DNA of 51,446 bases from an uncultured Planctomycetia bacterium (lineage in GTDB: Bacteria > Omnitrophota > Gorgyraeia > JABMRJ01). The position numbers and the translations under genes are program-made. The notes beneath the pieces were generated by a model, which made no database searches, had not been told where the DNA came from, and saw nothing but the letters and a program-made list of their open reading frames with translations. The DNA lies in contig CAZKWI010000002.1 of assembly GCA_964556455.1 (NCBI GenBank), positions 1 through 51,446 of the forward strand. The letters are read 5' to 3'. Shown here one piece after another: positions 26,279 to 46,157 of the stretch (within the stretch, counting starts at the first letter, position 1; every line of letters starts with the position of its first letter).

Positions 26279-28108
26279 TTAGGTGCTTGATTTTTTTATA
26301 ATTTTTTTAACCCGCCTTAATAACCTGTCGAGAAACCGGCGCGGCGCCGATAGAAAAGCCTTTGGGCGCTTCGGCGGCAAGAGAGGCTTCATATCCTTAA
26401 GAGGCGTGATCTGGTGAAGTATCAGGGGATCGGTCTTTGCAAGCCACGGATATAAGTCTGTGAAATGCTCTGTCAGGTGATCGACATATGCCTTGGCCTT
26501 ACCGAAAGGCGGCCTTGCCTCAACCTTCTCTGTGCAAAAATATATCGGGTCCCGGACTATCATCCCCTCGCGGGTCTTTAGCTCATCATAACCAACTTCT
26601 TCCGCGTACTGCCTGGACAATCCGATGCATATGAGCCTTAAGGAGCATTTTTTACAGGGCGGGCCCTGTAAATTTCTCTTTCGGCTTTCTATTAAGCTAT
26701 AATAAAGATGATCGAACTCCCCTCTCAATTTATGGCCGGGCTTGTTATCCCACCCGCCCTGATAACATGACTGGTGAAAATTCAACATATATTCTTCGAA
26801 GCCTTCGTAAGGGCAAATCGGTGAGAAAGAGATATGCGGAGCCAAACCCGCTGAAATAAGAATTGAAGCCGCTTTTTTTATGTACGGCGCGGCGTCTATG
26901 TGGCGAACGTAGAAATTCGGCAACTTATGCGATTTCCATGAATCCTCGGGAATATATAACAGGAGATAAACACCCCCTGCCGGTTTTATGTCTAATAATT
27001 CCCGCGCGAAATCCGGCAAATGAGTGTGGTTAACACTTGTAACCACGGTGTTAATTTTTAAAGGTATGCCGGCGCCTATGGCGTTATCTATGCTTTTTCT
27101 TATCGCCTTATACGCTCCGGGCTTATTAGTTACATAATCGTGATCTTTCTGGTTACCGTGAAAAGCGAATGTAAGGTATTCTATCCCTGCGGCTTTCAGG
27201 TCCTTTGCGAATGCTTTGGAAAGATTTTGGCCGTTTGTGTCGATCGTGGTTGCAAGACCGATCCGTGTGCAATATTCTACCAATTGAACGATTCGGGGAT
27301 GGCACGTAGGCTCTCCGCCTAGGATGTCCAAATGAGTATTGCCGTAAAACCTTCTGTTCGAGCTGCATTCCTTCTTGAGATCCCGCAAGGATCGAAAAAC
27401 TTTTTTCGGCGAATACCGGTAAAAACAGAAGAGGCAGCTTAAATTACATGCCTTACCTACATATAAGCGGCCTCGATGCGTCAGCTCTCTTACGCCGAAC
27501 CATTTATCCCTGAAATAAAGTGAATTTTTCTCAACAGCGCCTCTATGTAAATGCTCGTGACGGACGGTTGATTTTCCGCAATAAAGAAGGGTGAACCCGT
27601 TTTTTCTTATCTGCATGGAGAAATCACAATCTTCCCACTGGCTTCCTCCGTATTTGATATCGAAAACGCACTTATTCAGTATGTTTTTGTTATACAGGCT
27701 GCAGGTTCCGGAGAGCAGCTCAGCCGCCCTTATATAATCATACTGCCCCTTGTCCTCTTCGCCTCCGCCCACAACTGTGTTTTTGCCTGAAAGAGTTGTG
27801 AAAACCTTCTCTGCGGCGAAGATCCTGCCGTCGGGATACAGGACCTTCGGCTGGATCTGTCCTATACCGTCATCCCTGCATTCTAATAAGCGATCGAGCC
27901 AGCCGGGGTCTACCGCAACATCGTCATCCATCATCACAAACCAGTCAGACTTAAGTTTAGATAAAGCGATATTCCTGTTCTCGGCCGCGCTTCTTTTTCC
28001 CTCGACCACTATAATGTTATAATCCCGGGTATGGTCTTTGATGCTCTTTATACAGCCGTCAAGAGCGGAAGTCCTTTCATAACATATTATCGCGATATCT
28101 ACCGTCAT
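26279..28108 (-). CDS. Fusion: GT2 glycosyltransferase plus radical SAM enzyme with Cys-rich (SPASM/twitch-like) C-terminal region
   Basis: 609 aa. aa 1-~205 is GT2 (DIAIICYERTSAL...FVMMDDDVAV). C221-x3-C225-x2-C228 lies in GKACNLSCLFCFY, with DILGGEPT and a TIM-barrel-like core to aa ~395. Further Cys include C485-x2-C488-x5-C494 (PPCKKCSLRLIC). Confidence 0.8.
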   Translation of the reverse strand: MTVDIAIICYERTSALDGCIKSIKDHTRDYNIIVVEGKRSAAENRNIALSKLKSDWFVMMDDDVAVDPGWLDRLLECRDDGIGQIQPKVLYPDGRIFAAEKVFTTLSGKNTVVGGGEEDKGQYDYIRAAELLSGTCSLYNKNILNKCVFDIKYGGSQWEDCDFSMQIRKNGFTLLYCGKSTVRHEHLHRGAVEKNSLYFRDKWFGVRELTHRGRLYVGKACNLSCLFCFYRYSPKKVFRSLRDLKKECSSNRRFYGNTHLDILGGEPTCHPRIVQLVEYCTRIGLATTIDTNGQNLSKAFAKDLKAAGIEYLTFAFHGNQKDHDYVTNKPGAYKAIRKSIDNAIGAGIPLKINTVVTSVNHTHLPDFARELLDIKPAGGVYLLLYIPEDSWKSHKLPNFYVRHIDAAPYIKKAASILISAGLAPHISFSPICPYEGFEEYMLNFHQSCYQGGWDNKPGHKLRGEFDHLYYSLIESRKRNLQGPPCKKCSLRLICIGLSRQYAEEVGYDELKTREGMIVRDPIYFCTEKVEARPPFGKAKAYVDHLTEHFTDLYPWLAKTDPLILHQITPLKDMKPLLPPKRPKAFLSAPRRFLDRLLRRVKKIIKKSST

Positions 28109-30235: not shown

Positions 30236-30958
30236 TCAGTCCTTTTCAGTATAGTCATAATAGTAATAATACGGATGCAGGCTTCTCATTTCCACCCTGT
30301 TAAATATCACCCCCAGGATGTGGGCTTTGGCGTTATTGAGCAGAGTCATGGCTCTCTGCACCGCGTCCCGGGGTGTCCGTTCCGCCATAATTACCAGGAG
30401 GACGCCGTCAACCAATGATCCTATAATAGTGGCGTCGGTCACAGCCAGTATGGACGCGCAATCGAATATGAACGTATCAAAATACCCCTTAATGTCTTCC
30501 AGCAGTTTCTCCATTTTATTTGAACCGATTAATTCTGACGGGTTCGGCGGTATTGAACCGCTGGTAATAATGCTTAAGTTCTCTATGCCTGACGGCTTTA
30601 GCGCCTTCTCCCAGCTTATTTTTCCGGTCAAGATTTCGGTCAGGCCCGGCGCTTTATCCAAACCGAAGATATTATGAAGCGTCGGTCTTCTCATATCGGT
30701 ATCGACCAGAAGTACGTTCCTGCCTATCTCGGCTATGGTTATCGCTAAATTCGCCGTAGTGATCGTCTTTCCTTCGCTCGGCCGGGAACTGGTGATAAGT
30801 ATCTTTCTTCCTTTCTGGGGCAGATTGGCATATTCTATATTCGTACGCAGGATGCGGTATGCTTCTGCCTCGGGTGATTTCGGGTCATAGTGAACGATCA
30901 ACCTGCTTTTAAGATCAGAGAGGGCCTCTTTAGGTCCCCTTTTTTTCCTTTCCGCCAT
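30236..30958 (-). CDS. BY-kinase (CpsD/CapB-type cytoplasmic tyrosine autokinase)
   Basis: 240 aa. Walker A SSRPSEGKT, Walker A' LLVDTDMRRP and Walker B-like FIFDCASIL. C-terminal tyrosine cluster HPYYYYYDYTEKD (30251..30271). Confidence 0.85.
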   Translation of the reverse strand: MAERKKRGPKEALSDLKSRLIVHYDPKSPEAEAYRILRTNIEYANLPQKGRKILITSSRPSEGKTITTANLAITIAEIGRNVLLVDTDMRRPTLHNIFGLDKAPGLTEILTGKISWEKALKPSGIENLSIITSGSIPPNPSELIGSNKMEKLLEDIKGYFDTFIFDCASILAVTDATIIGSLVDGVLLVIMAERTPRDAVQRAMTLLNNAKAHILGVIFNRVEMRSLHPYYYYYDYTEKD

Positions 30959-32496
30959 TATCCCCTCTTTTTTTTCTTTCTTTCGATAAATTCGTTTAAT
31001 GTCTTTGTTATTTGTTTGCGTTTCAAATTAATTATCTCCAGGAACTGTTTGCGCCTTTCTTTCTCCTCCCTGGTCATTATCCTGGGAATAACGCCGATTA
31101 CCGGCAGAGCCGTGTACAGCGTTACGTCCTGGATCGTCTTCAAAGACATGTCCATATGCTCTTCTATAAAGGCCGCCGCTATTCCCAGAACGATCCCTAA
31201 CAGACATCCTATCAGGATTTCGGATCTTTTCTTCTGGCTGACCGGAGCGGTCGGTTCAGTGGCGCGTCGAACCAGCTTCACCTTTCCTGTTACCATAGCT
31301 ATAGAAATACGGATCCTCTCTATTTTACCCGCCAATGCGTTATAAGTAGCCCTGATAGTGTTAGCCTCCCGCTTCAGGCGTACCAGCTTGGTGTCTTTAT
31401 TTATCACATCCCTGACATTTGAGTAATACTCCTCGATCAGATCCATCAGGGAAGCTTCCCTGACATTCGCGCTGCTTATCTCTATCTCCAATTGCAAGAT
31501 ATTTTTGATCCGGTCTTGATATACGGTCCAGGGATCCAGAACCGCTTTCTCAACAAGTACAACCTTGCCTGTTTCCTCGCTCAGTACCTCTTTGGTCTCA
31601 TCTATCCTTTCCTGTAATTCAATGACACTGGGGTGCTTCTCGGTATATTCTCTGAGCAAAAGAGAGCGCTCTACCTCGAGATCTATCAATTTCTCCCTGA
31701 GCTTTTCTATCACAGGACTTTTGGTCTTTGTTATTGAGGGCACAATGCCCAGCTCAAGCTTAGCCAGCTCTCCCCTCAATACGTTTAACTGCGCTTCGGC
31801 AATTTGCCGTTTCAGTTTGGTATCAATATATTGTTTTTCTAATCCGCCTACCCTGCCTATAGCCGGGTCCGCGACCTGGCCCACATCCGTTTTGTACCCA
31901 GACAGGGCTTCCTCTGTTTTTATTAACTTTTCCTTAAAAACCTCCAATTGTTCTTCTATATATTTAGCGGCAGAACGGGTTTCTTTCGTTAATTCTTTAA
32001 CGCTTTGAACTACAAAGACCTCGGCTGCGGCATTTGCTATATACATCGCCTTTTTAGGGTTATCGGCTATGGCCTTTACCTGCAATAAATTTGTATTTTC
32101 TATCTTAGCGGCCGAGACACTATTTTGGATACTGGCTATTGTCGATGGCAGTTCTGACCGCGCGGCATACTCTCCTATCCTCTTTGAGGCTCGGGCAGCC
32201 TTTATGCTTAAAGTCTTGGCAACCTTTTCCGCAAACTGAGGGCTTTCAAATATTCTAAGTTGAGTATCCATTACATCCGCGGGCACGTGCATAATAATGC
32301 CTTTTAAGAATTGGGAGGCGGCCGCAGGTTTTTCCAGCATTACTGTCGCGGTAGCGCTATAAAGAGTGGGGCTTTTTGGAGCGAAGATAGCGCTGGAGAG
32401 TGTTACCGATACTATAGCCAGGATCACGATCCATTTTCGCCTCTGAATGACCGATAAATAATCGCGTAAGCCTACGTCTCTCTCTTCCTGCCTCAT
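30958..32496 (-). CDS. Polysaccharide co-polymerase (Wzz/GumC-type, PCP-2b-like membrane adaptor of the BY-kinase)
   Basis: 512 aa. N-terminus LRDYLSVIQRRKWIVILAIVSVTLSSAIF (Wzz motif plus TM1). Long coiled-coil periplasmic region. TM2 ILIGCLLGIVLGIAAAFI, then LPVIGVIPRI and a basic tail ..ERKKKKRG. Confidence 0.8.
   Translation of the reverse strand: MRQEERDVGLRDYLSVIQRRKWIVILAIVSVTLSSAIFAPKSPTLYSATATVMLEKPAAASQFLKGIIMHVPADVMDTQLRIFESPQFAEKVAKTLSIKAARASKRIGEYAARSELPSTIASIQNSVSAAKIENTNLLQVKAIADNPKKAMYIANAAAEVFVVQSVKELTKETRSAAKYIEEQLEVFKEKLIKTEEALSGYKTDVGQVADPAIGRVGGLEKQYIDTKLKRQIAEAQLNVLRGELAKLELGIVPSITKTKSPVIEKLREKLIDLEVERSLLLREYTEKHPSVIELQERIDETKEVLSEETGKVVLVEKAVLDPWTVYQDRIKNILQLEIEISSANVREASLMDLIEEYYSNVRDVINKDTKLVRLKREANTIRATYNALAGKIERIRISIAMVTGKVKLVRRATEPTAPVSQKKRSEILIGCLLGIVLGIAAAFIEEHMDMSLKTIQDVTLYTALPVIGVIPRIMTREEKERRKQFLEIINLKRKQITKTLNEFIERKKKKRG
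30967..30973 (-). other. In-frame A_AAA_AAG heptamer (dnaX-type -1 slippery sequence) within an A8 run, 6 nt upstream of the PCP stop codon
   Basis: Minus strand reads ..GAA AGA AAG AAA AAA AAG AGG GGA TAA TGG.. in the PCP frame. The -1 frame after the heptamer reads GAG GGG ATA ATG GCG.., which is open and in phase with the BY-kinase ATG (30958..30956). Function is untested and the match could be coincidental lysine-codon usage. Confidence 0.25.
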
Positions 32497-34002
32497 CTAT
32501 TCCTCTCGCTCATCTTCCGATTGGCCTGCTTTTTTTCTCTTCCTGTATAATCTCGTCGGCATCCTCTTCTTTTTTTCTCTTTTAAGATACTTGTCTACCT
32601 CCCGGCTGATCTTTTCTCCTTTGCCTATTTCTTTTTGGACAGCCTCTTCGGCTTTTTCTTCCGTTAAGATGCGGGGGGTTATGAATATCATTAATTCTGT
32701 CTTTTCCACGACATCATTTGTAGTCCTGAATAAAAGGCCCAAGAGCGGTATATCACCGAGAAAGGGGACCTTTTGCACGGTTTTAAGCTTCCTGTCCTGC
32801 AATAATCCCCCTATGATCAGCGTCTTTCCGTCCTTAACGTTCACATGGGTATTTGTTTTGCGTGAGGCCTTTATGGGAATATTTTCTCTTTCTCCCTGCA
32901 CAAACGAGACCTCCGGCTCCAATTCCATATTCACAACATCTCCTTTTCTTATGCGGGGAGTGACCTTGAGAATTACGCCGACATCCACAAAGCTGGTTGT
33001 ATAAACAGCCGTGCCCGCAGAGGTGTTCCCGGTCAGTGTGTTAAACGGGAGCTTGGTCACTATCTCTATCTTTGCTTCTTCTCCATTTTCTACTAAGATC
33101 TTAGGCTGGGCTAAAAGATCTGCTTTGTTCTCTGTAAGCAAAGCGTCGATCACTGAGCTGAAGTCATATTGGTCGATCATTTGACTGATAAAAAGGCTCC
33201 CTCCCGAGGTCAAGGTAGCGAGTCCGATATTAGGTATGAGTGTCCTTAATTCCTCCGCAATTACCGCCCCCTGTGAAACTTTCTCCTGAGTGGTCAATTC
33301 CGTTGATAACGGCGGAATGGTGTTACTTTTATTATAGGTCGCCCCGACAAAATTCGTCCCGCCGATCTTATCTATAAACCACCTTATCCCCAATTCCTTA
33401 TCAATGTCGGCCTTGACCTCTATGATCTGGGCTTCGATCAGGATCTGGCGTTTATCCGGGCCATAGATATCCAATTCCCTGATCACCCTTTCTATCCCCG
33501 CCAAATTGGCCGGGATGTCAGTGGCTATCAATGAATTTGTCACTTCATCAGCATAGATACTGCCTGTTTCCGAAACTACGCCCATAACAGCTTCCCTCAC
33601 GATGGCGGCCTTGGCATAGTTTAAGCTGATCACCCTGGTCGCCTGCGATCCAGACTCTCCTGCCACCCTTACTGTGGTGATCAGGCCTCCTGTCCCTACC
33701 CCTGTCTTTTGAACAGTCACTACCGGTTTTTTAATATACACGGCCAGCCTATCCCGCAGTTCTTTCTCGAGTTTTGGGATCGTATTGCCGGCTGCCTTCA
33801 CTTCTCCGATCAGGGGGAATACGATATAGCCCGCCTGGTCCAGATTAAGCACCCGGTCCAGGTCTGCCTGTCGTTTCAGGCGTATCTCAACAGTGTCTCC
33901 CGGTTTTAAAATTTCCTCTTCCGCCATAACCCCCAAAGTGAATATGCTCAGGGTCAATGCTGAAAGGATTAAAACAAATACCCTTGTCTTTTGCGCTATC
34001 AT
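32497..34002 (-). CDS. Outer-membrane chimera: signal peptide, Wza-type Poly_export (PES) domain, Secretin_N-like domain, secretin domain, basic tail
   Basis: 501 aa. Signal peptide ..LSIFTLGVMA. aa 31-97 LKPGDTVEIRL...LDQAGYIVFPLIGEVKAAGNTIPKLEKELRDRL..YIKKPVVTVQ matches the Poly_export pattern. aa 121-177 VISLNYAKAAIVREAV...ADEVTNSLIATDIPANLAGIERVIRELD is an N1-type secretin domain. aa ~186-446 ILIEAQIIEV...VPFLGDIPLLGLLFR...ELMIFITPRIL is the secretin C-domain signature. The last ~55 aa are Lys/Arg/Glu-rich. Confidence 0.75.
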   Translation of the reverse strand: MIAQKTRVFVLILSALTLSIFTLGVMAEEEILKPGDTVEIRLKRQADLDRVLNLDQAGYIVFPLIGEVKAAGNTIPKLEKELRDRLAVYIKKPVVTVQKTGVGTGGLITTVRVAGESGSQATRVISLNYAKAAIVREAVMGVVSETGSIYADEVTNSLIATDIPANLAGIERVIRELDIYGPDKRQILIEAQIIEVKADIDKELGIRWFIDKIGGTNFVGATYNKSNTIPPLSTELTTQEKVSQGAVIAEELRTLIPNIGLATLTSGGSLFISQMIDQYDFSSVIDALLTENKADLLAQPKILVENGEEAKIEIVTKLPFNTLTGNTSAGTAVYTTSFVDVGVILKVTPRIRKGDVVNMELEPEVSFVQGERENIPIKASRKTNTHVNVKDGKTLIIGGLLQDRKLKTVQKVPFLGDIPLLGLLFRTTNDVVEKTELMIFITPRILTEEKAEEAVQKEIGKGEKISREVDKYLKREKKKRMPTRLYRKRKKAGQSEDEREE

Positions 34003-34025: not shown

Positions 34026-34571
34026 TTAATCGCGGGGCTCGTATTCTTTATAATCTATTTCTAGGTCTTCTTCCATTTTCTGCCTGTATGTTTCGCCGTG
34101 GTCTTCCTGATATTGAGTAACAACATCTTCTTTCAGGTGCTCTTCCCATTTGTTCCCGTATTCTTCTTTATAAAGTTCTATCCCCTCGTCTTCATAGTCC
34201 TCTTTGAGTTTTTTCTTATATCTGGAACCATATTTTTTTTTATACTCTGCAATGACTTCCTCTTTCATTTTTTCCTTGTAGCCTTCTCCGTGCTCTGCCT
34301 TGTAATAAGCTTCGGTCTCTTCTCCAAAGTCTTCTTTGAGTTTCTTGCCCCATTTATCTCCATATCTTTCTTTGTATATAGATATAAGATTTTCTTTGGC
34401 GTCATTTACGATCTTCTTTTTGTAGGTGCCGAAAAAATTGATGACGCCCGGTTTGGTTACATCAGACCCAACGGCGCCGGTGTCCGCCATTTCTTTTTGA
34501 ATGCTCAACCTGTTTATCTGCCTAAAGCCGCCTTTTTTCTTGCCTGTATCAAGATTGATCAATTTCCCCAT
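34026..34571 (-). CDS. Tyr/Lys/Glu-rich repeat protein of unknown function (possibly secreted; CDS may extend to 34631 with an ATC start)
   Basis: 181 aa from the first ATG. Five or six degenerate ~20-24-aa repeats with core Y-K-x-x-[YH]-G-x-x-[WY]-x-x-[KH]-[LM]-K-E-[DE] (YKERYGDKWGKKLKED / YKAEHGEGYKEKMKEE / YKKKYGSRYKKKLKED / YKEEYGNKWEEHLKED / YQEDHGETYRQKMEED). I recognise no family. See the finding on the upstream in-frame signal-peptide-like extension. Confidence 0.6.
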   Translation of the reverse strand: MGKLINLDTGKKKGGFRQINRLSIQKEMADTGAVGSDVTKPGVINFFGTYKKKIVNDAKENLISIYKERYGDKWGKKLKEDFGEETEAYYKAEHGEGYKEKMKEEVIAEYKKKYGSRYKKKLKEDYEDEGIELYKEEYGNKWEEHLKEDVVTQYQEDHGETYRQKMEEDLEIDYKEYEPRD

Positions 34572-34702: not shown

Positions 34703-37384
34703 TTATTCCTGCTTTTTTAAATTGATCTCTTCTTTTTCGCCGTCTCCGTCTTTTAATGTGATACCCTTTGAAGATATATCCACAACCTCTTTGCCGTCAA
34801 TGAGATCCCCTACTTCTAAAATCTTGCTGTTTACAACAGCCGCCGCTTTATCGTCTTTTCCGATAATTCCATATATCAGCATAAGGTCTTGCTCATCCTC
34901 TCCCATCTGCTCTTTTTGCGCTTTCTCAAGCTCTGCCCTGGCCTTATCAATTCCTTCTTTTGCCTCCGTATTGTAAACATCCAGCGCTAAGACATCTCTC
35001 CATGCGTCTATAGCCTGTTGGTATTGACCGTTATCAAAATAGTCTTTAGCGGTTTTTAAAGGCGCTTCGATCTTTTGTTCTCTGGTAATCTCTCTTCCGG
35101 CCTGTTGAATTGCCAGGGTCTCTCCTGCAGGTCCTTGAATGTTCTCTTTTTCCGAACCAGCTTCTATTTTGGCGGCTTGCGCGACTTCTTTTATCTCACC
35201 AGGCCGCACAACTTCTTCTGTCTCGACAGCCCGCACAATCTCTTTTTTCTTTTTCGCTTCAACTTGCGCGGCTTCCATCTTCTTCTTCAGCAGCTCCTTC
35301 ATTGCAGCCGCGCGCTCTTCTTCTGCCAATATTGCGTCTACCTCCTCCAGCTGCTTCCTTGCTCCTCTGGCCCATTCCATGTCAGCAGAACGATTTAATG
35401 CCACTGCCCGAAACATCTTTCCCGCCTCTTCGTATTGTCCTAGCCTTTTAAAACAAATACCCATTTGATAATGTTCGAACCCCAGAGAAATGCCCTCCTG
35501 GAGATCTAACGCAGTTCTATATATTTGAATAGCTGCGTGAGGGCTATTCTGCCGCTGATAGCAATCGGCTAATGCGTAAAATGCCTCCATTAAAAACGGG
35601 CTATCCGGATATTTGCGGACTAACTTCTGGAATTCCTCAATTGCCCTGTCTAATAAACCCTGTTTTAAATAAATTGTGGCTATCCAATACTGGGCATAAC
35701 CGGCTTTGTCGCTAAGAGGATGGCTTAAAATCACCCTTTTGTATTCTTTGATCGCCTCTCCTTCCATGCCCAGCATTTCAAAACAACTGCCTATATAATA
35801 TTGCGCGTTTGCGCTCTGCTTTTTATCGGGGAACCTTTTAATAAATTCTCTATATCTGTTGATGGCCTTCTCATACTTCTTCGCTGCGTGCAGCTCCGAT
35901 GCTGCCTGGTACTGCACCACCGGGTCCCCTTTTCTGTGCAAAAAGCGCACCGCTGATCTTGATGCGATAATTACCATTATCCCAAGAACGATCATTTTAA
36001 ATATAGCCCATCTCTTTTCCTGCGTAATTGGCTCTTTTTTGCGCGGGCTTAATTTTTCCTTCTCCCGGGCTTCGGTTTTTTCTTTTTCAGGATCATCTCT
36101 TGTTTCTGCCAGCGCTGCTTCGTGAGGTTTTATTATCTTTTGGACCTTATTTACCCTGTCCCGCTTCTCAACCTGCGAGATCTTATCGCCCGGAGCGAAG
36201 AGGGTTAATATAAAGTCCACACCGGTCTCTACAAATTTAGGTTCTTTTAAACCATTCTCCTGAGCTGCCTTTTTTATGCGCCTGACACCCGTACCCAGCT
36301 TCTCGATATACCCCTCCATAAGCAGGAGGGCCTCAACGATTATCTTATTTCTTGAGTATTGCGTATATTCCATATTTTCCACTGTTACAGGGCCGGGCAA
36401 TCCTCCGGGTGTATATATCTCTATACGATCATCGAACATAAAGATCCTGATACACGCCTCCTTAAAATTATAATCGCGGTGCACTATGGCGTTAGCGACC
36501 GCCTCGCGGACAGCGACCAGAGGATACTCAGGAAGGTCCAGCCTCTTCAAGCCTTCAAACATCCCGCTTAACTTCATATGCCTGACCACAAACTGCTGCG
36601 CTTCGTCGATCATCTCAGGTATGGTCGCCCTCAGCTCTTTTCTATCTATTATCGAACCAGCTTTATCCGTACCCTTAAATTTTGCCATGTTTACGCTCGA
36701 GGACCACAGAAATCGCTGCGGATCCTTACCAAAGAGCAATAACCCCGCGGTAGAAGGCAGGAGGCTTCCATTGCGCCTGACCAGAATCCCTATATTCTCC
36801 AATAAGATCTTTGTGGAGATATCTTTTTCTGATTTAAATCTTTTCTTTCTCTTTTCGATATAATCCTCTATCTTAGCGGAGTCTAGATCGTTATATGTGG
36901 CCTTCTCCACTGGCAGGCTATCGCCCCCTACCCCTTTCTTAAAAAGCTTCCGGCCTGGCGACATAGATTGTATCTCGCCAGAGGCAGCCACGCGGACATG
37001 CTGGCCATCCCTGATATAACAGTGGCCCTCTGCATAATAAGGTTTATTTTTCCCCGCTTTAACAGAAACAGCCACTATATTTTTCCTGCCGACCTTCCTT
37101 ATGGCAACTTCGGGAATAACAGGCGGACTGCAACGGTCCTGCCCGATTTTAACCATGTCCTTCTCTATAGACTTTGAGCCGTATATATTGACGCCGACGA
37201 TTGTTTTTTCTTTAGGGTCGGCCCCGATAATTATCAACCCGCCGCTGGTGTTGGCAAAGCTGACCATTGTCCTTGCCAGGCTTAAAATATCGTTTTCTTT
37301 GACCGGTAGATCCGGCCTGAGCTCAACGTCCCGCCTGGGCCCCTGCTTCACCATCTCCTCTATCTGATAGCCTGTCAGATTCAC
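34703..37384 (-). CDS. Bitopic membrane protein: cytoplasmic AlbA_2 (Schlafen-type) and HATPase_c_4-like domains, one TM, periplasmic TPR repeats, coiled coil, GspB/PilP-like C-terminal domain
   Basis: 893 aa, GTG start with AGGAG 6 nt upstream. aa 1-~125 ..LSLARTMVSFANTSGGLIIIGAD.. is AlbA_2. aa ~285-395 ..YPLVAVREAVANAIVHRDY...IEIYTPGGLPG...GTGVRRI.. is HATPase_c_4-like. TM at aa 459-479, WAIFKMIVLGIMVIIASRSAV (35948..36010), preceded by basic residues. TPR-like repeats at aa ~493-670. Lys/Glu coiled coil. aa ~833-888 LMLIYGIIGKDDKAAAVVNSKILEVGDLIDGKEVVDISSKGITLKDGDGEKEEINL (34721..34888). Confidence 0.7.
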   Translation of the reverse strand: MNLTGYQIEEMVKQGPRRDVELRPDLPVKENDILSLARTMVSFANTSGGLIIIGADPKEKTIVGVNIYGSKSIEKDMVKIGQDRCSPPVIPEVAIRKVGRKNIVAVSVKAGKNKPYYAEGHCYIRDGQHVRVAASGEIQSMSPGRKLFKKGVGGDSLPVEKATYNDLDSAKIEDYIEKRKKRFKSEKDISTKILLENIGILVRRNGSLLPSTAGLLLFGKDPQRFLWSSSVNMAKFKGTDKAGSIIDRKELRATIPEMIDEAQQFVVRHMKLSGMFEGLKRLDLPEYPLVAVREAVANAIVHRDYNFKEACIRIFMFDDRIEIYTPGGLPGPVTVENMEYTQYSRNKIIVEALLLMEGYIEKLGTGVRRIKKAAQENGLKEPKFVETGVDFILTLFAPGDKISQVEKRDRVNKVQKIIKPHEAALAETRDDPEKEKTEAREKEKLSPRKKEPITQEKRWAIFKMIVLGIMVIIASRSAVRFLHRKGDPVVQYQAASELHAAKKYEKAINRYREFIKRFPDKKQSANAQYYIGSCFEMLGMEGEAIKEYKRVILSHPLSDKAGYAQYWIATIYLKQGLLDRAIEEFQKLVRKYPDSPFLMEAFYALADCYQRQNSPHAAIQIYRTALDLQEGISLGFEHYQMGICFKRLGQYEEAGKMFRAVALNRSADMEWARGARKQLEEVDAILAEEERAAAMKELLKKKMEAAQVEAKKKKEIVRAVETEEVVRPGEIKEVAQAAKIEAGSEKENIQGPAGETLAIQQAGREITREQKIEAPLKTAKDYFDNGQYQQAIDAWRDVLALDVYNTEAKEGIDKARAELEKAQKEQMGEDEQDLMLIYGIIGKDDKAAAVVNSKILEVGDLIDGKEVVDISSKGITLKDGDGEKEEINLKKQE

Positions 37385-37398: not shown

Positions 37399-38208
37399 CT
37401 ATTGTTCGCTTTCCGCGTTCTTCTCCGCGTCTACCTTAAGCCAATATTCTATTTTATCCAGCTTTTCATAAAAATCATCCAGCGTGGCTTTGCGCTTTAG
37501 AACAACATCCCGTTCAGATGGTGCGTCCGGCTGCGATCTCTCTTTACTCACGGTGGTGCTTATATATCCAAAAGTTATCCCTGCCAATACCGATAAGGCT
37601 ATGACTATGAAATAAGTACTTGTACACACATCCTTAGCTCTGTGCAGGATAAACTCATAGAAAGAGGAATATAAAGACGCCATCTGCCTATCCAGGCTCT
37701 TTCCTGTTTTCCCGAGATTTTCGGTCCTGGTTATTACATCTTTTTTGAGAGAATTTAATTTCTGTATTATCGCTTCGCTCTGTGTAAGCTCTCCGCTAAA
37801 GACCTTCTCTAAACCCTCGCTGAACAGGACAGGCCTGGCCCTGGTATCTATAAGGAGGTGCTTGATCAATGCTTTAATATATTTTAAATCGAATGGTTTG
37901 GTAATATAGTCGAAGACGCCCAGATCGGTCGCCTCCTTTACGGACTTCATTTCTCCGTAACCGGTTATTATTACATTTATTACTGAACTATCGCTCTTTC
38001 TAATTCTGCGTATCGTCTCAACGCCGTCTATCCCGGGCATCTTCAGGTCAACCAGGGTCAGATCGACCTTCTTGTTCTTGACTATTTTTATTGCTTTTTC
38101 TCCGCTTGCCGCGGTTAAAACCTTATAGCCTTCTTTTTTTAAAACCTTGGATAAGATTTTTCTAACCCCGGCTTCATCATCTATTATTAAAATACGCGGT
38201 GCGGTCAT
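37399..38208 (-). CDS. Response regulator (REC domain) with C-terminal coiled segment and single TM anchor; no DNA-binding output domain
   Basis: 269 aa. ILIIDDEAGVRKIL...DLTLVDLKMPGIDG (acceptor Asp54)...ITKPFD. TM at aa ~197-219, STYFIVIALSVLAGITFGYISTT (37552..37620), followed by a ~50-aa charged tail. Confidence 0.85.
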   Translation of the reverse strand: MTAPRILIIDDEAGVRKILSKVLKKEGYKVLTAASGEKAIKIVKNKKVDLTLVDLKMPGIDGVETIRRIRKSDSSVINVIITGYGEMKSVKEATDLGVFDYITKPFDLKYIKALIKHLLIDTRARPVLFSEGLEKVFSGELTQSEAIIQKLNSLKKDVITRTENLGKTGKSLDRQMASLYSSFYEFILHRAKDVCTSTYFIVIALSVLAGITFGYISTTVSKERSQPDAPSERDVVLKRKATLDDFYEKLDKIEYWLKVDAEKNAESEQ

Positions 38209-38235: not shown

Positions 38236-38511
38236 TTATTGTTCAACTGCGGGTTTCCCTCTATTGGTCTTCTCCGCCATCAAGCTCATCCAGTCATCCA
38301 AAATTTTCTTTTTAAACCGCCAGCGCCCGCCAATTTTAAAAGCCGGGATCTTTCCCTGTTTGACCAATTTATACACGGTTATCTTGTGAATAGCCAAATA
38401 TGCAGCGACCTGAGCGGTATCCAGCAATTCCGGCGTTTCAGGATTCTCTTTCATTTTTCTGCTCTCTTTCTGCCTTATTTTTATCCATCCCCTTTGCGAT
38501 CCAACTGTCAA
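38236..38511 (-). CDS. HTH_17 (excisionase/MerR-like) small DNA-binding protein, copy 2
   Basis: LLDTAQVAAYLAIHKITVYKLVKQGKIPAFKIGGRWRFKKKILDDWM. The likely real start is the internal MKENPETPE (38454), which shortens the overlap with copy 1. Confidence 0.75.
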   Translation of the reverse strand: MTVGSQRGWIKIRQKESRKMKENPETPELLDTAQVAAYLAIHKITVYKLVKQGKIPAFKIGGRWRFKKKILDDWMSLMAEKTNRGKPAVEQ

Positions 38512-38665
38512 TGGTGCTCTTCTTAAAGCGCCACTGGCCGCCTATTTTAAAAGCGGGGATGATCCCCGCTTTGATCAGTTTATAGATCGTTATTTTGTGC
38601 ATAGTCAGGTATTCAGCCACTTCAGGGACGGTCATAATATTATCAGATCTTTTTTTCATATTCAT
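38438..38665 (-). CDS. HTH_17 (excisionase/MerR-like) small DNA-binding protein, copy 1
   Basis: IMTVPEVAEYLTMHKITIYKLIKAGIIPAFKIGGQWRFKKSTIDSWI. Tandem paralogue of 38236..38511. Confidence 0.75.
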   Translation of the reverse strand: MNMKKRSDNIMTVPEVAEYLTMHKITIYKLIKAGIIPAFKIGGQWRFKKSTIDSWIAKGMDKNKAEREQKNERES

Positions 38666-38919: not shown

Positions 38920-40197
38920 TCAGCCGGCAAGCTGTTCCGCCGGCAGCTCTATCCTGAATTCAGCTCCTTTGCCCGGCTTGCTATCCACCGTTATGTTACC
39001 CTTATGTTCGGTAATTATCCTCTGGCAGATAGAGAGTCCTAAACCAAGGTTTCCCGGGCGCCTGGTAGTAAAAAACGGATCGAATATCTTGTCTATTTGT
39101 TCGGGGGCGATACCAGGGCCTGAGTCTTTGAATTCGATCAATATAGACTTACTGTTTTTTATGTTTACTGTTGTTATGGTCAATCTTCCACCGCGAGGCA
39201 TCGCATATTTGGCATTTATTATTATATTCAAAAAGACCTCTTTAAGCTCATCAGGGTCAATAATCGTCCCGGGTAAAGAAGGGCTTAGGTTCTTAACGAT
39301 CTTTATCCCCTTCAGTGATATCTGGTATTTTACAAGGTTCAAGACCTCCATTATAATACTATTTACATCAATGGAAGTTCCTTCGTATTTAGACGGGCGG
39401 CTGTAGCGCAGGAGCCTCTGAATGATCTTTAAGCAGCGTTTACTTGCCTTGTCTATCTCTATCAGCTCATCCATCATGGGATCGTTCTTTGAGGTGTTGG
39501 AGATTAAATATTGAACATTGGCTGAAATCACGGCTAAGGGATTATCCAGCTCGTGCGCAATGCCCGCGGAGAGCTCTCCCAGGGTAGTCATTTTTTCATA
39601 TATTATCAGCTGTTTTCGCGTCTCCACGCATTTACGGCGAGCGCGTTCTGCCTCTTCATACAACCTCACGTGCCAGATAGCTATAGCCGCCTGGCTGGCG
39701 AGAAAGGAAATAAATTTCAGGTCGCCCTTGTCAAATTGAGATTCAGAGCGCAGGCTGTTTATATTAAGCACCCCGATGACCTTATGTTCTATCTTTAAAG
39801 GCACCGATATGGCCGATTTAATCTCGTTTTTTTTGGCGAATTTATAAAATCTCTTGTCTTTTCTCAAATTTCCTATAAGAAGAGTGCTCTCTCCTCTTTT
39901 GGCTACCCAGCCGGCTATTTCATCGCCGATTTTTATCCTTTTTGTTCTCATGATCTCCTTATCCAGGCCGACAGCCGCTTCTATGCCCAAGGTATGGGTC
40001 TTCTCATCCAATAACATCAAAGAACCTGTATTGCCGCCGGAGGCCTCGAGTGAAGTCTCCAGTATTTGCTGCAGTATTTTTTTAAGCTCATACGCGGTCA
40101 ACATCCTGGCGGCGATATCCAGCAGATCGTCCAGCCCTTCCAGGAAGGTCTTATCAGCGATCTTTCTTCTTTTGTTCTCTTTTGCCCGTTTATTCAT
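38920..40197 (-). CDS. Cytoplasmic sensor histidine kinase (GAF, HisKA, HATPase_c); no TM segment
   Basis: 425 aa. GAF-like region ILETSLEASGGNTGSLMLLDEKTHTL...IGVLNINS. H-box LGELSAGIAHELDNPL. N-box LNIIINAKYAM. G-boxes FKDSGPGI and GLGLGLSI. GAGGAG lies 6 nt upstream of the ATG. Confidence 0.85.
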   Translation of the reverse strand: MNKRAKENKRRKIADKTFLEGLDDLLDIAARMLTAYELKKILQQILETSLEASGGNTGSLMLLDEKTHTLGIEAAVGLDKEIMRTKRIKIGDEIAGWVAKRGESTLLIGNLRKDKRFYKFAKKNEIKSAISVPLKIEHKVIGVLNINSLRSESQFDKGDLKFISFLASQAAIAIWHVRLYEEAERARRKCVETRKQLIIYEKMTTLGELSAGIAHELDNPLAVISANVQYLISNTSKNDPMMDELIEIDKASKRCLKIIQRLLRYSRPSKYEGTSIDVNSIIMEVLNLVKYQISLKGIKIVKNLSPSLPGTIIDPDELKEVFLNIIINAKYAMPRGGRLTITTVNIKNSKSILIEFKDSGPGIAPEQIDKIFDPFFTTRRPGNLGLGLSICQRIITEHKGNITVDSKPGKGAEFRIELPAEQLAG

Positions 40198-42647: not shown

Positions 42648-44318
42648 TTACATGTATCCCAATGTCTCCAGCCTCTGTTTTATCCTTGACGATTCTTCCG
42701 GCGAATAGGGCACTCGTTCTCTCTCAGGCAATATCCCTTTATCATCGATATATTTTATTGGGTTTTTGTCCCTAAAGTTTTCTGTAAATATCCCCTCCAT
42801 CACCCTGCCGTCCATGCTTAAAGGGATTTTTTCGCCCATAGAATAAAGGACCGTGGGGGCCAGGTCGGCTATGCCGGCTTCGCTGAGTTTCCCTCCCTTC
42901 CGGATATTGGGCCCCTTGGCGGCAAATATCCCCTCTATTCTATGCGTTCCTGACCATGGCATTATATCAGAAGAGGCGGCGTTCCTTTTGGTATTTCCCG
43001 GAATTTCAGGAAAGACCGCTTCTTCGGCAAAATCGATGATTACATCAGCCAATCTATCAACATATTTACCGCTATAGGCCTCTTCTCTCTTATATGCGGC
43101 CTTAACGAGCTTTTCACCTGTTGGTGACCTCAAACTGCTGAGTTTATTCTTCAATAGATCCCGTAAGTTTTCATACTCTTCTCCGGGCCTGACTATTCCC
43201 CGGGGCTCTCTCTTTTCCAGATTGATCCATATGTTCTTGCTTAAGCAGACAGACGGCAGGACATAGGCCCTGGTCCGGGGCCAGTCTACCCCGCTCAGGA
43301 ACGATCTGGAAATAAAATTTTTTGCCTGCGCAAAAAACATGGATTTCAAATACCGCTTTATTTCCGGGCTTATATGTCTTTTTATACCGGTCATTATGCG
43401 CTCAATATGCGGATCAAAGATCGTCGATCTTCCGCTTTTTAACTTCATAAAACCATTCTCGCACAGCCATCTATTTAATGACAGGGCGTTATTGAGATCG
43501 AGCGGGCCCATGCCATGATCAGAGATCAACATTACAGTTACATCCTTTTCAGTTTTACTGAGGATATCGCCGGTAAGGCGGTCCATGTCTTCGTAAGTCT
43601 TAAAAATAGCATCCCTGTAAGCTTCCGCCCCTTTCTCATCATACTGGGGATGGCGCCCATCCATACAATGCCAAAAAAAATGCCCCACCCTGTCCGGGGC
43701 CGTAAAGACCATCATAAAAAAGTCCCATGGATATTTCTCCATAAGATATAAAGCGACGTCTTTTCGTTTTTCTTCCACCGACCGGATATTCTGCAGGATC
43801 CTGCCCGCCGTGCTGTATTTCAGGCTCCCCTGAAGAGGATATTCAACAACATAGTCGCCGAACCGTTTCTCTATTTCGGCGAGGACCCCCCGGGGATAGG
43901 CAAAATCAGACCTTACGTCCGGGGCATTTACGCCGGGGAGCAGTATGCCGTTAAACTCGTCGGGAGGATACGTAAACGGGATATTTATAAGAATGGATCT
44001 TTTATCTCCGCCCAGGAGTGACCATAGGGGTTCGGCCTTTCTAAACGAAGCGTTTATAAATCGCTGGGAATAGTCCCTCGGCTGGAATTCGAAAAAATTA
44101 GGGATCCCGTGCTTGCCTGGGTTTTTGCCTGTGGTTATTGTTGTCCAGGCTGCGGCAGAATTATAATTATGCACCGAATTGCATACAGAAGAAACCCCTT
44201 CATTTATAAGGCGCGAGATGTTCGGCAGCCTTCCCTTCCAGGCCATAGGCAAGATTATATCAAAGGTGGCGCTATCCAGCCCTATAACTAAAACCTTTTG
44301 CCTTATATTTCTTTTCAT
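42648..44318 (-). CDS. Alkaline-phosphatase-superfamily protein (type I phosphodiesterase/nucleotide pyrophosphatase-like), copy 2
   Basis: 556 aa. KVLVIGLDSATFDII..., ..AAAWTTITTGKNPGKHGI.., ..FFWHCMD.., ..MLISDHGMGP... No TM or signal peptide is evident. Confidence 0.75.
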   Translation of the reverse strand: MKRNIRQKVLVIGLDSATFDIILPMAWKGRLPNISRLINEGVSSVCNSVHNYNSAAAWTTITTGKNPGKHGIPNFFEFQPRDYSQRFINASFRKAEPLWSLLGGDKRSILINIPFTYPPDEFNGILLPGVNAPDVRSDFAYPRGVLAEIEKRFGDYVVEYPLQGSLKYSTAGRILQNIRSVEEKRKDVALYLMEKYPWDFFMMVFTAPDRVGHFFWHCMDGRHPQYDEKGAEAYRDAIFKTYEDMDRLTGDILSKTEKDVTVMLISDHGMGPLDLNNALSLNRWLCENGFMKLKSGRSTIFDPHIERIMTGIKRHISPEIKRYLKSMFFAQAKNFISRSFLSGVDWPRTRAYVLPSVCLSKNIWINLEKREPRGIVRPGEEYENLRDLLKNKLSSLRSPTGEKLVKAAYKREEAYSGKYVDRLADVIIDFAEEAVFPEIPGNTKRNAASSDIMPWSGTHRIEGIFAAKGPNIRKGGKLSEAGIADLAPTVLYSMGEKIPLSMDGRVMEGIFTENFRDKNPIKYIDDKGILPERERVPYSPEESSRIKQRLETLGYM

Positions 44319-44405
44319 CCCGCTTCTCCGTTGTCTTATCCTTTTTCAAGAGGGGGATCCGGGACGCGCCCCCCTTCCTGCGCGTTACCGCGCCATGATC
44401 CCGGT

Positions 44406-46157
44406 CTAGATATAACCGATGGACTTTAACTTATTTTCAATCGCGTCTTTTTCTTCCTGGGAATAGATTTCGGGCCCGGTCTTAATGAAAGGCTCTTCGG
44501 CCCGAGAATGCCGGACGGGATTTGCCTTCATAAAAGACCCGTTGAATATGTGATCCAGAACTCTGCCATCCATGTTTTTGGATACAGGCAAACCCAGACA
44601 ATGGAGTACGGTTGGCGCAACATCGGTTATCTGGGCCTTGTCAAAATTCCCGGTATTTTTTATATGAGGGCCTCTGGCTAAGAAAATGCCGGCCCTTCTG
44701 TGTTGGCCGGAAAGCCGCATATACCTGTGTCTATCCGAGAATGGGTAGGCGGCATCTGCCCTGTCAGGCCACACCGCTGTCATGTCACCTAAAAATCTCT
44801 CCCGCCATTCGATTATTATATCCGGCGCGGATCCCAGATATTTGCCCCGGTAAAGTTCCTCTCTTTTATAAGCCTTCTTGATCAGTCCTTCGCCGGTCTC
44901 GGGGAGTTTTATCTCTTCGAGCCGCTTGATGATCTCTTCTCTCAGGGCTTCATATTCAGCGCCGGGCTCTACAGTGCCCCTCGGCTGGCGGCCTTTCCGG
45001 TTTATTACTATAGACGTGGATATCTTCTCCCCAAAAGGACTATAGGCCTTTGTATTGCGCCAGTCGACACATGAAAGAAGATACCGGCTCTTCGCGTCTT
45101 TCTTCGCCTTATTGATCAATTTGTAAAGCTTGAGCCTCTTCGCCTTATCTATAACAGGCTTGAGGCTAAGGTAGCTGTTAAGAAGCAGCCTCCACGCCTT
45201 ATCCTTTAAGGCCTCTTTAGGTAGCTTTAGATATCCTTCCTGATTTAACCATAGATTCAGATCAAGGTATGGGCAGGTTCCATGGAACGGCCCCATACCA
45301 TGGTCGGAGACGATGATTATTGTTACTTCCCGGCCCAGGCCCGAAATGATAGTCTCGATGGCTTTATCCAGCTTCTCATAAGTCCTCCTTATCGCGTCCC
45401 TATACCCCCGGCTCCTTTTTTCGCTGAAGCGGGCGTGATCGCTGTCCATACAATGCCAGAATATATGCGGCATCCTGTCGGAAGCGACGAAGACCACACT
45501 GAGAAAATCCCAGGGGTATCTATCCATTAGATACCTTGTAACCTCGGCCCTTTTTTCAACAGTACGTTCCATAGCCTTCAGGATCTTATCGGCTTCTCTG
45601 TAGCTCGTCTTTCCCCAAAATGAAGGCTCTATCTCGTAACCGCCGACATATCTTTGTATCTCGTCATAAAGCTGGGCGGGATAGGTAATATCGGCCGGCC
45701 CTCCCGGCGAGCCTGCCCCGGCTATGAAGAAACCGTTAACATTTTCAGGAGGGAATGTAAACGGGACATTTATAACGCCCACCTTAAAGCCGCGCTCGCT
45801 CAATGTGGTCCATAACGGCTTTGCTTTACAGGACCTTAGGCTTACAACCCCTGTGTCATAATCTCCCCTCTTCAATGCCCTCAAGCCAAATATACCGTGT
45901 TTACCGGGGTTTGTGCCGGTAACTAAACTCGCCCAGGCTACAGTCGATACGTATGGAACTGTCGAAATCAACTCTCCATGCACTCCCTCATCTAAAAACC
46001 TGGCTATGGTAGGGAGCCTCCCCTCTCGGACCAGGGGCCTTATCAGATCCAAGGTCGCCCCGTCCAATCCTATCAGCAGCACCTTCTTGCGTTTATTCAC
46101 CCCTGGAATCCCTCCATATGCGGCGATAAGCCTTGAATGCGCCTTGTAGCGGTTCAA
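44406..46157 (-). CDS. Alkaline-phosphatase-superfamily protein (type I phosphodiesterase/nucleotide pyrophosphatase-like), copy 1
   Basis: 583 aa. KVLLIGLDGATLDLI..., ..TVAWASLVTGTNPGKHGI.., ..IFWHCMD.., ..IIVSDHGMGP... Colinear paralogue of 42648..44318. A GTG at 46100 (VNKRKKVLLIG) is a plausible alternative start that reduces the overlap with 46093..47001. Confidence 0.75.
   Translation of the reverse strand: MNRYKAHSRLIAAYGGIPGVNKRKKVLLIGLDGATLDLIRPLVREGRLPTIARFLDEGVHGELISTVPYVSTVAWASLVTGTNPGKHGIFGLRALKRGDYDTGVVSLRSCKAKPLWTTLSERGFKVGVINVPFTFPPENVNGFFIAGAGSPGGPADITYPAQLYDEIQRYVGGYEIEPSFWGKTSYREADKILKAMERTVEKRAEVTRYLMDRYPWDFLSVVFVASDRMPHIFWHCMDSDHARFSEKRSRGYRDAIRRTYEKLDKAIETIISGLGREVTIIIVSDHGMGPFHGTCPYLDLNLWLNQEGYLKLPKEALKDKAWRLLLNSYLSLKPVIDKAKRLKLYKLINKAKKDAKSRYLLSCVDWRNTKAYSPFGEKISTSIVINRKGRQPRGTVEPGAEYEALREEIIKRLEEIKLPETGEGLIKKAYKREELYRGKYLGSAPDIIIEWRERFLGDMTAVWPDRADAAYPFSDRHRYMRLSGQHRRAGIFLARGPHIKNTGNFDKAQITDVAPTVLHCLGLPVSKNMDGRVLDHIFNGSFMKANPVRHSRAEEPFIKTGPEIYSQEEKDAIENKLKSIGYI

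Follow-up and report, generated by a model that had tools for sequence, protein, structure and literature searches.

A membrane-anchored AlbA_2/HATPase_c_4 protein with a GspB-like C-terminal domain, a candidate secretin tether in a polysaccharide-export locus

We analysed a 51,446-nt stretch of contig CAZKWI010000002.1 (the window), from an uncultured bacterium of the Omnitrophota lineage, with a focus on one gene that encodes a protein of 893 residues (the focal protein). This protein is predicted to join a cytoplasmic AlbA_2/HATPase_c_4 module, through a single transmembrane (TM) helix, to a periplasmic tetratricopeptide repeat (TPR) domain and a C-terminal extension that ends in a small beta domain. 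As the first-pass annotation of the window had stated, only a small repeat protein of 181 aa separates its gene from that of a Poly_export–Secretin_N–Secretin chimera (PES-secretin). We lean towards seeing the focal protein as a polysaccharide exporter's inner-membrane subunit, with a scaffolding or regulatory role, which has acquired a GspB-like secretin tether, the tethering itself being what we infer. Sequence and synteny directly provide the architecture of the protein, its conservation, its place between two-component genes and a co-polymerase gene, and the joint appearance of tail and secretin. Comparison of the loci clearly revealed that only the C-terminal extension tracks the secretin; the TM-TPR core does not.

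A homologue search covering 5.8 billion proteins returned two membrane-bound forms of the family. Three close relatives are long forms like the focal protein (P0002, 75% identity; P0003, 62%; P0004, 49%, with a different C-terminal end). About fifteen further clusters are short forms of ~680 aa, 39–44% identical over the first 76% of the query, which carry AlbA_2, HATPase_c_4, TM and TPR regions and stop right after the TPRs. Where their source is named, it is Candidatus Omnitrophota, and their labels read "tetratricopeptide repeat protein", "DUF3808" or "RecG helicase". The alignment of the family shows 38–79% identity with invariant columns in both halves. An assembly chimera, a gene-fusion artefact or chance could be ruled out as the origin of this architecture, because the same architecture occurs in more than 15 protein clusters whose members come from independent samples (independent metagenomes).

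Contigs of eleven family members were then compared with the window by tblastn; the neighbouring genes lie on the contig in 10 of 12 lineages upstream and in 10 of 12 downstream. Wherever the contig reaches, the order is conserved: a GAF-domain histidine kinase (HK), a REC-domain protein with a TM segment (REC-TM), the focal gene, a Wzz/GNVR co-polymerase, a tyrosine autokinase and Wzm/Wzt-type ATP-binding cassette (ABC) genes. The REC-TM gene, of the same length and plan, is directly upstream of the focal gene in all the lineages with an upstream flank (10/12). The short-form set comprises seven lineages on nine contigs after removal of duplicates (L001/L007/L092, L088, L089/L096, L090, L091/L094, L093, L095). 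In these loci the Wzz gene follows the focal gene immediately, and no secretin was found within 10 kb in any of the seven lineages. Their upstream region, where available, encodes a Wzz-kinase fusion, an exporter with Poly_export and SLBB domains, a TIGR03015-like ATPase of the GspA/ExeA type (224 bits), an HD protein and often a PilZ protein. Throughout the 51-kb window, tblastn found no TIGR03015-like ATPase, HD protein or classical exporter. On four of the short-form contigs (L001, L094, L095 and L096), the upstream 10 kb holds a shared fixed block, in which the PilZ, Wzz-kinase, Poly_export+SLBB and TIGR03015-like (XrtA/PEP-CTERM-associated, GspA-like) genes are joined by those of a 585-aa kinase-like protein, an HD/HD_5 protein and a secreted protein of ~147 aa. 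The same four contigs have a TM protein of 112–129 aa between the REC gene and the focal gene. The window contains no gene of this block, nor the 112–129-aa TM protein.

In the long-form loci, by comparison, a repeat protein (~180–200 aa) and the PES-secretin are inserted between the focal gene and the Wzz gene. We observed this insertion in the window, in P0008 (three contigs, L004, L005 and L087) and, without the repeat protein, in P0004 (L006). The P0002 contig stops inside the repeat protein. For P0003, contig L003 overlaps contig L099 with 99.6% identity over 146 aa, and L099 runs on into the repeat protein and the chimera P0145. The PES-secretin is thus seen in three long-form lineages (window, P0008 and P0004) and in P0003 by contig overlap. 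From this comparison it follows that the C-terminal extension occurs in one small clade, together with the repeat protein and the PES-secretin. The first-pass annotation had anticipated co-occurrence of this architecture with PES-secretins in other genomes, and for the long form this holds; most members, however, are ~680 aa long, have no tail and lie in loci with no secretin within 10 kb. Its suggestion that the TM and TPR parts had been "rewired" onto the module for the secretin did not survive the comparison. The TM and TPR fusion is the ancestral architecture of a conserved, unnamed family and is not specific to the secretin. In the clade of the window, the chimera takes the place of the ordinary Poly_export/SLBB exporter, and the focal protein has gained a periplasmic extension in which a long helix is followed by a flexible spacer, a TPR hairpin and the beta domain.

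The chimera itself is rare. Its architecture, in which Poly_export takes the N0 position, was found in only 5 other clusters among the proteins searched, 47–88% identical to the window copy; these are about as numerous as the long-form focal clusters. Other secretin matches are at most 38% identical, and most of them have N0-type domains. The chimera gene always lies in front of those of Wzz and the tyrosine kinase. Homologues of the repeat protein, which has no family match in Pfam or NCBIfam, occur upstream of the PES-secretin on L004/L005/L087, L099 and L100, and on L002 directly after the focal gene, where the contig ends inside it. An N-terminal hydrophobic segment is seen in the copies of L004 and L099 and is missing from those of the window and L002.

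The first ~400 residues of the focal protein are, as had been recognised at first reading, an AlbA_2 plus HATPase_c_4 module whose ordinary members are soluble and end in a winged helix-turn-helix (wHTH) domain. The AlbA_2 domain (PF04326) scored 59.8 bits against a gathering threshold (GA) of 25.3, and HATPase_c_4 (PF13749), a member of the GHKL clan of Pfam, scored 75.3 bits against a GA of 26. Among relatives of the cytoplasmic part, just one has a solved structure, PDB 3lmm (E=1.9e-16), the uncharacterised protein DIP2311. In a 13-sequence alignment of the TM family, invariant columns concentrate in aa 150–400 and in the TPRs. The invariant core residues include E294, N298, HRDY 302–305, D318, PGGL 326–329, G364 and G366. 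AlbA_2 is missing from P0003 and P0008, which retain aa 150–400 (L003 1432-3669; L004 536-2428; L005 2288-4180), and this absence is genuine, since their starts lie a few bases after the end of the preceding gene. What is conserved on the cytoplasmic side is hence the HATPase_c_4 core and not AlbA_2. The focal protein combines this core with a TM helix and YbgF-like TPRs, and its gene lies between those of HK/REC-TM and Wzz/tyrosine kinase; these are all the features by which we define the proposed new family.

A third group in the homologue search is the ordinary soluble module of ~490 aa, often with a wHTH-type C-terminus (HTH_24, MarR_2 and others). Other TPR fusions of the module (P0021, P0023–27, P0032–33 and P0037) have no TM segment and are cytoplasmic; they come from archaea and Nitrospirota, and some end in an RRM domain. 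A full-length-alignment scan of contigs keyed on HATPase_c_4 returned mostly generic soluble members, for example from Collinsella, and only L007 and L008 were relevant, both of them incomplete. PADLOC matched the N-terminal module to Schlafen-type domains that are fused to prokaryotic Argonaute (pAgo) and SIR2 systems. We set a role in defence aside, since only the module is shared and the context carries no signs of defence.

The membrane topology could be read from the family as a whole. One strongly hydrophobic segment occupies the same alignment position in 13/13 members, and a survey of hydrophobicity in these 13 rejected a second TM segment or a re-entrant topology. The 15 residues on the N-terminal side of the segment are richer in Lys/Arg than those on the C-terminal side in 12 of the 13. 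The positive-inside rule and TPRs of the periplasmic YbgF/CpoB and BamD type point to a cytoplasmic N-terminus. Moreover, a 458-aa N-terminus with domains of cytoplasmic type and without a signal peptide cannot be exported. The only reasonable reading of these sequences is that the focal protein would be oriented N-in/C-out, with its TPRs and tail in the periplasm. The cytoplasmic N-terminus and periplasmic TPR part proposed in the first-pass annotation are upheld by this check of hydrophobicity and flanking charge.

All the parts listed in that annotation were also found, namely the basic linker, the TM helix at aa 459–479, the TPRs, the Lys/Glu/Ala-rich stretch and the C-terminal segment. 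The list was nevertheless incomplete, as it lacked the disordered spacer (aa 723–767) and the hairpin (aa 768–830), and its "coiled coil" is only a predicted long helix. A whole-protein AlphaFold2 (AF2) model was built from the 13-sequence alignment, and the beta domain was modelled apart from 21 sequences. The model contains about five TPR pairs at aa 488–662. This region matches the NCBIfam model tol_pal_ybgF (TIGR02795) with 109.3 bits against a cutoff of 90.1, summed over three stretches; the CpoB and BamD models match as well, and BamD is among the best natural Foldseek matches. For the Lys/Glu/Ala-rich stretch the model gives a single long helix. In P0002 the spacer carries a 45-aa repeat insertion. 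The focal gene has the ribosome-binding site AAAGGAG 5 nt before its GTG start, and this start corresponds in the alignment to the ATG start of the closest homologue, P0002 (MNLTDYQIEEL...).

The first-pass annotation had assigned the C-terminus to the GspB/PilP/GspC-HR type, and weak but convergent matches favour this (CdsD_C, T2SSB, LspC 7oio and an hhalign match to GspC). On the fragment, Pfam gave CdsD_C (PF23862) with 26.3 bits and E=7.7e-6, just under the GA of 27; the window domain reaches CdsD_C only and not T2SSB, and in P0003 the T2SSB match is weak (E=0.017). An exhaustive phmmer search against 1.84 billion representatives returned 24 matches, mostly TM proteins of 120–245 aa that end in the domain; seven of them begin with MS(I/L)I..ALK. 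Among 20 homologues of the domain, CdsD_C matched 20, T2SSB 13 (best 4.9e-4), T2SSC 1 and PilP 1. In NCBIfam, the relatives gave weak matches to SctD/YscD over its final 70 positions and to GspC models over their HR region. A profile search returned an Omnitrophota relative named GspB with precomputed T2SSB (PF16537) and T2SSC (PF11356) domains. Another relative, P0129, is a GspB-like protein of 221 aa with an MSIINDALKK start, a TM segment and the C-terminal beta domain, encoded directly after a 270-aa TIGR03015-like ATPase (288 bits), that is, a GspA/GspB-type pair. This pair (L098 2529-4049) lies beside two PilZ genes, outside a classical type II secretion system (T2SS) operon.

At the level of structure, the only high-probability match with a high TM-score in a Foldseek search of the PDB was the nuclear magnetic resonance structure of Legionella LspC (GspC), 7oio (probability 0.97, TM-score 0.61, 26% identity, E=0.44); nothing fell below E 0.001, which is usual for a 55-residue domain. 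The hhalign comparison placed the beta-domain profile on aa 81–145, the HR region, of E. coli GspC with E=0.014. The domain is 76–77% identical to that of P0002, against 75% over the whole protein. Taken together, the evidence is near threshold but convergent in placing the domain in the CdsD_C/GspB/GspC-HR superfamily. Small beta domains of GspB, GspC, PilP and SctD are used by inner-membrane components to face the secretin. Several candidates were discarded during this work. P0124 and P0127 are Ig-repeat type IX secretion system cargo proteins with short partial, spurious matches, and a third giant match, P0140, was left out of the phmmer follow-up. A PDB sequence search with the 125-aa tail returned only designed TPRs, which matched via the hairpin. 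E. coli K-12 GspB was rejected as a reference; it is a cryptic copy without the T2SSB beta domain, so that the null comparison with it is uninformative.

Table 1 Features of the focal gene and its neighbours in the window
Feature	Position	Strand	Basis or remark
Whole focal gene, 893-aa bitopic inner-membrane protein (predicted)	34703..37384	minus	Open reading frame (ORF); GTG start, stop included; 100% cluster P0001
AlbA_2 (Schlafen-type), aa 32-131, cytoplasmic	36992..37291	minus	Pfam PF04326 SLFN_AlbA_2 E=4.6e-16; AF2 confidence (pLDDT) about 85-90
Conserved cytoplasmic core, aa 150-395, with HATPase_c_4 (aa 312-395) at its end	36200..36937	minus	Pfam PF13749 E=3.9e-21
Basic low-complexity cytoplasmic linker, aa 396-458	36011..36199	minus	K 20%, E 17%, R 10%; AF2 pLDDT <50
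Single TM helix, aa 459-479	35948..36010	minus	Kyte-Doolittle 2.04; AF2 helix 455-485
Periplasmic TPR domain (predicted), aa 485-668, ~5 YbgF/BamD-type repeats	35381..35932	minus	TPR_6 E=6.6e-25; AF2 pLDDT ~90
Long K/E/A-rich helix, aa 669-722, first part of lineage-specific extension	35219..35380	minus	E 20%, A 20%, K 17%; AF2; not in short-form homologues
Disordered E/A/G-rich spacer, aa 723-767 (~45 residues)	35084..35218	minus	AF2 pLDDT ~30; length variable
Extra TPR-like hairpin and helix, aa 768-830	34895..35083	minus	Weak TPR_2/TPR_16 matches; AF2 pLDDT ~90; kept in P0002, P0003, P0008
C-terminal six-stranded beta domain, aa 835-888, CdsD_C/GspB/GspC-HR type	34721..34882	minus	CdsD_C 26.3 bits; AF2 pLDDT 80.7
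REC-domain protein, one TM (aa 200-218), tail ~50 aa, no output domain	37399..38208	minus	Response_reg E=3.2e-31
Cytoplasmic GAF histidine kinase	38920..40197	minus	GAF, HisKA, HATPase_c; syntenic in family loci
181-aa repeat protein, downstream of focal gene	34026..34571	minus	About five YKxxYGxxWxxKLKEDF repeats
Poly_export–Secretin_N–Secretin chimera, proposed outer-membrane partner	32497..34002	minus	Pfam; Poly_export in N0 position
Wzz/GNVR co-polymerase	30958-32496	minus	Follows focal gene directly in short-form loci
Tyrosine autokinase	30236-30958	minus	After Wzz

Other genes of the window were recorded alongside those of Table 1. Between the HK and REC genes lie two small HTH_17 (excisionase/MerR-like) genes (38236-38665, minus) whose ORF calls overlap. 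The pair also occurs in L002 and L003 and a single copy in L006, and none is found at this position in the short-form loci. Upstream of the kinase and two glycosyltransferases, the minus-strand region 42648-51433 encodes two Phosphodiest (PF01663) proteins, a family 2 glycosyltransferase (GT2), a Wzy_C protein and another Wzz, which is short (305 aa), along with a radical SAM protein of the B12-binding type and a Bac_transf priming transferase, so that Wzy-type and ABC-type elements are present in one cluster. A 609-aa ORF (26279-28108, minus) apparently fuses a glycosyltransferase-2-like N-terminus to a radical-SAM/SPASM-like C-terminus, as judged from its own sequence and from its L004 homologue (Glycos_transf_2, Radical_SAM and SPASM).

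We propose the following working model. The apparatus would be built from an ABC transporter of the Wzm/Wzt kind, a Wzz-type co-polymerase and a tyrosine kinase, together with an outer-membrane exporter. In Omnitrophota-like bacteria the core family recurs in such loci as a conserved component; its TPR domain would organise periplasmic partners. In the clade of the window, the long helix, the spacer and the hairpin may act as a stalk, bringing the GspB-like tip up to the ring of periplasmic N-domains of the secretin. By analogy with GspB, GspC, PilP and SctD in protein secretion, the extension would tether the outer-membrane channel to the inner-membrane machinery or align the two. More speculatively, the HATPase_c_4 core, with its invariant motifs, is predicted to bind ATP, and it might be the target of the REC-TM protein, which would link the kinase signal to the assembly, gating or activity of the exporter. 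The coupling of the cytoplasmic module to the channel, supposed already in the first-pass annotation, is for us also pure inference. The model can be carried further, to an unrecognised type of trans-envelope polysaccharide exporter. In it, a secretin pore, given substrate specificity by Poly_export in place of N0, would be physically coupled to the inner membrane by a dedicated ATP-binding protein, GHKL-like and Schlafen-type, whose cytoplasmic module is switched by the REC-TM protein. The channel would then be gated or assembled, via the TPR stalk and tip, in response to a cytoplasmic phosphorelay or to nucleotide binding. We offer this fuller version tentatively and regard it as unlikely.

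Several observations weigh against the tethering model. Every assignment of the beta domain lies at or below curated thresholds, and a PDB sequence search with its profile returned designed Kelch repeats, in which one short motif recurs six times, and OutC/GspC 2lnv with E=1.1; we treated these as noise. The domain is restricted to one sub-lineage (window, P0002 and P0003). P0008 has the secretin and the hairpin and no beta domain, and P0004 has a different C-terminal domain, which matches nothing in Pfam and is unrelated to the beta-domain profile. A secretin-type system can therefore do without the beta domain, which would be one of several solutions. For its sub-lineage, moreover, co-occurrence with the secretin rests on the window and on the join of L003 and L099. 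On the cytoplasmic side, AF2 confidence is low over HATPase_c_4, where ATP binding is predicted only, and AlbA_2 is dispensable in two lineages (P0003 and P0008).

The chimera, finally, does not have an N0 domain. In the systems studied so far, N0 is the secretin domain bound by GspC-HR, PilP and GspB. An ad hoc hidden Markov model (HMM) of N0+N1, built from 70 GspD-like proteins, found only the N1 of the chimera in the window. Since N0 is absent, contact would have to be made through N1, through the Poly_export domain or through some third protein. The initial proposal of a secretin partner with a secretin-binding tail is hence sustained in that the extension tracks the secretin, and is weakened by the confinement of the beta domain to one sub-lineage and by the missing N0. 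The P0003 lineage (L003 3683-4387 and L099 3-884) encodes an extra 382-aa protein, whose gene lies between those of the focal and repeat proteins. An N-terminal TM segment is followed in it by a long coiled coil and, at the C-terminus, by an STN/N0-like domain (STN 9.7e-5, sub-threshold) that matches the N0 part of the HMM. This may be a free-standing N0 domain, and N0 might thus be provided in trans. No counterpart of this gene occurs in the window.

Besides the tethering model, the focal protein may be a secretin assembly or anchoring factor, a one-chain analogue of GspA/GspB (ExeA/ExeB) that is needed only to insert or anchor the secretin multimer through the peptidoglycan and not to couple transport. 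Its CpoB-like TPRs would then be a periplasmic scaffold that faces the cell wall, set between the nucleotide-binding module with its TM segment and the GspB-like end. ExeAB combines a cytoplasmic ATPase, a TM segment and a periplasmic peptidoglycan-binding domain, and ExeB binds the secretin. The domain order of the focal protein mirrors that of GspA plus GspB, and the relatives of its beta domain are GspB-like proteins paired with GspA-like ATPases of the TIGR03015 type. Such an ATPase is absent from the 51-kb window and present in the short-form loci, and the TPRs are closest to those of YbgF/CpoB and BamD, which are envelope-assembly proteins. However, the TM-TPR core is equally conserved in loci without any secretin, and secretin assembly therefore cannot be its main job. 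HATPase_c_4 is also unrelated to the AAA+ domain of GspA, and the Pfam scan found no peptidoglycan-binding domain. We consider a role in assembly alone rather improbable.

We also think it doubtful that the protein serves purely for transmembrane signalling, with the periplasmic TPRs and tail sensing the status of the envelope or polymer and controlling the AlbA_2/HATPase_c_4 module, and the beta domain binding another ligand or protein. On this reading, the module would cooperate with the neighbouring HK and membrane REC protein or would have the tyrosine kinase as its target. What speaks for such a role is that the HK and REC-TM genes adjoin in every locus with an upstream flank, that the REC protein itself lacks an output domain, and that the soluble relatives are presumed regulators with a wHTH. 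Moreover, the secretin does not have the canonical N0 receptor, and the short forms work without a secretin. Yet the DNA-binding wHTH is gone and AlbA_2 has been lost in two lineages, the tail occurs only where the secretin chimera and its repeat protein occur, and the relatives of the beta domain are components of secretion systems.

That the beta domain is a generic small beta-barrel resembling secretion domains by chance, and the extension a neutral lineage-specific add-on, fits family matches that all lie at or below curated cutoffs, the Foldseek E of 0.44, a PDB profile search yielding only repeat-protein noise and the clearly spurious phmmer matches to giant Ig-repeat proteins, but we judge it very improbable, as five independent weak lines converge on one functional class (CdsD_C, T2SSB, GspC/LspC, the SctD C-terminus and the GspA-adjacent GspB-like relative) and the domain has a confident fold and is 48–77% identical among the long forms.

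The question whether polysaccharides can be exported through secretins is a current one, and the window locus presents a natural and compact case, in which a secretin with a polysaccharide-export docking domain lies next to a Wzz/tyrosine-kinase/ABC machine and to one protein that appears to combine a GspB-type domain with a nucleotide-binding module. If the tether is real, modules that hold secretins have moved between protein-secretion and glycan-export systems. The widespread AlbA_2/HATPase_c_4 module here gains its first functional context, as the putative membrane-bound partner of a two-component system in envelope biogenesis. The ~680-aa core family is a conserved and so far unannotated constituent of the polysaccharide loci of a candidate phylum.

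Secretins have been considered in slime secretion before. A 2025 study (PMC12475490) linked GspD/PilQ secretins to it, and contains no discussion of such fusions or of GspB; in the classification paper on outer-membrane polysaccharide export (OPX), the main text does not mention secretins. A literature search on the AlbA_2 and HATPase_c_4 names found no paper that describes this architecture.

Among known proteins, the focal protein would work most like GspB/GspC, to judge by analogy, as it is bitopic, has a putative HR-type end and is encoded next to a secretin. With GspB/OutB/ExeB, the T2SS assembly scaffold, it shares the bitopic plan, a long periplasmic spacer and a small C-terminal beta domain, probably of the same superfamily, besides the neighbouring secretin gene, and the Omnitrophota relatives of the window domain are GspB-like, one of them annotated as GspB. 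In contrast to GspB, its cytoplasmic part is a 458-aa AlbA_2/HATPase_c_4 region and not a short GspA-binding peptide, it has no MSIINDALKK-type start, and it contains a 185-aa TPR domain. The window has no GspA-like ATPase, the partner secretin has no N0, and the system exports polysaccharide, whereas that of GspB exports folded proteins. By analogy, the topology resembles that of GspA and GspB put into one chain, with cytoplasmic and periplasmic modules that are not homologous. The HR domain of GspC and the C-terminal domain of PilP probably have the same class of small beta-sandwich-like fold as the focal domain, likewise on an inner-membrane anchor, and the matches to them are statistically weak. 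GspC ends in a PDZ domain or a coiled coil; the focal protein, which ends 5 residues past its beta domain, has neither, no PDZ match was found in it, and its beta domain is C-terminal rather than next after the TM segment. Unlike PilP, it has no lipoprotein signal, and its context is HK–response regulator and Wzz genes and not pilMNOPQ.

SctD, the inner-membrane ring protein of the type III secretion system (T3SS), is bitopic; its cytoplasmic domain is regulatory, and its periplasmic part faces the secretin. The focal protein is likewise bitopic with a cytoplasmic module and a periplasmic part; SctD/CdsD provides the best Pfam match of its C-terminal domain, and relatives weakly match the last 70 residues of YscD. 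No FHA domain or ring-building motifs were found in the focal protein, nor any T3SS genes in the window. To the soluble AlbA_2/HATPase_c_4/wHTH proteins (annotated as RecG-like helicase, ATP-binding protein or transcriptional regulator; 3lmm) its N-terminal 400 aa are homologous over the full length. In place of their wHTH, however, it has a linker, a TM helix and a periplasmic region, with no match to any HTH family in Pfam, and its context is polysaccharide export, whereas theirs is scattered or of the defence type.

The periplasmic TPR_6-type repeats are most akin to those of YbgF/CpoB and BamD, the latter found by both sequence and fold, and a role in protein-protein scaffolding in the envelope is likely. 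In contrast to YbgF/CpoB, the focal TPRs are anchored by a TM helix after a large cytoplasmic domain, with no Sec or lipoprotein signal and no N-terminal trimerisation coiled coil, and the gene lies amid polysaccharide export genes and not in a tol-pal or β-barrel assembly machinery (BAM) setting. AlgK, PelB, BcsC and PgaA are periplasmic TPR scaffolds of polysaccharide secretion. The likeness to them is loose, as the focal TPRs are not fused to a beta-barrel porin and the pathway is of the ABC-transporter/Wzz type and not synthase-dependent. The focal protein thus does not belong to GspB, GspC, PilP, SctD, YbgF or the soluble AlbA_2/HATPase_c_4 regulators, as it lacks at least one defining feature of each. 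The principle of the tether is already known; what is new is the protein that carries it, along with that protein's cytoplasmic module, and the setting of a polysaccharide secretin.

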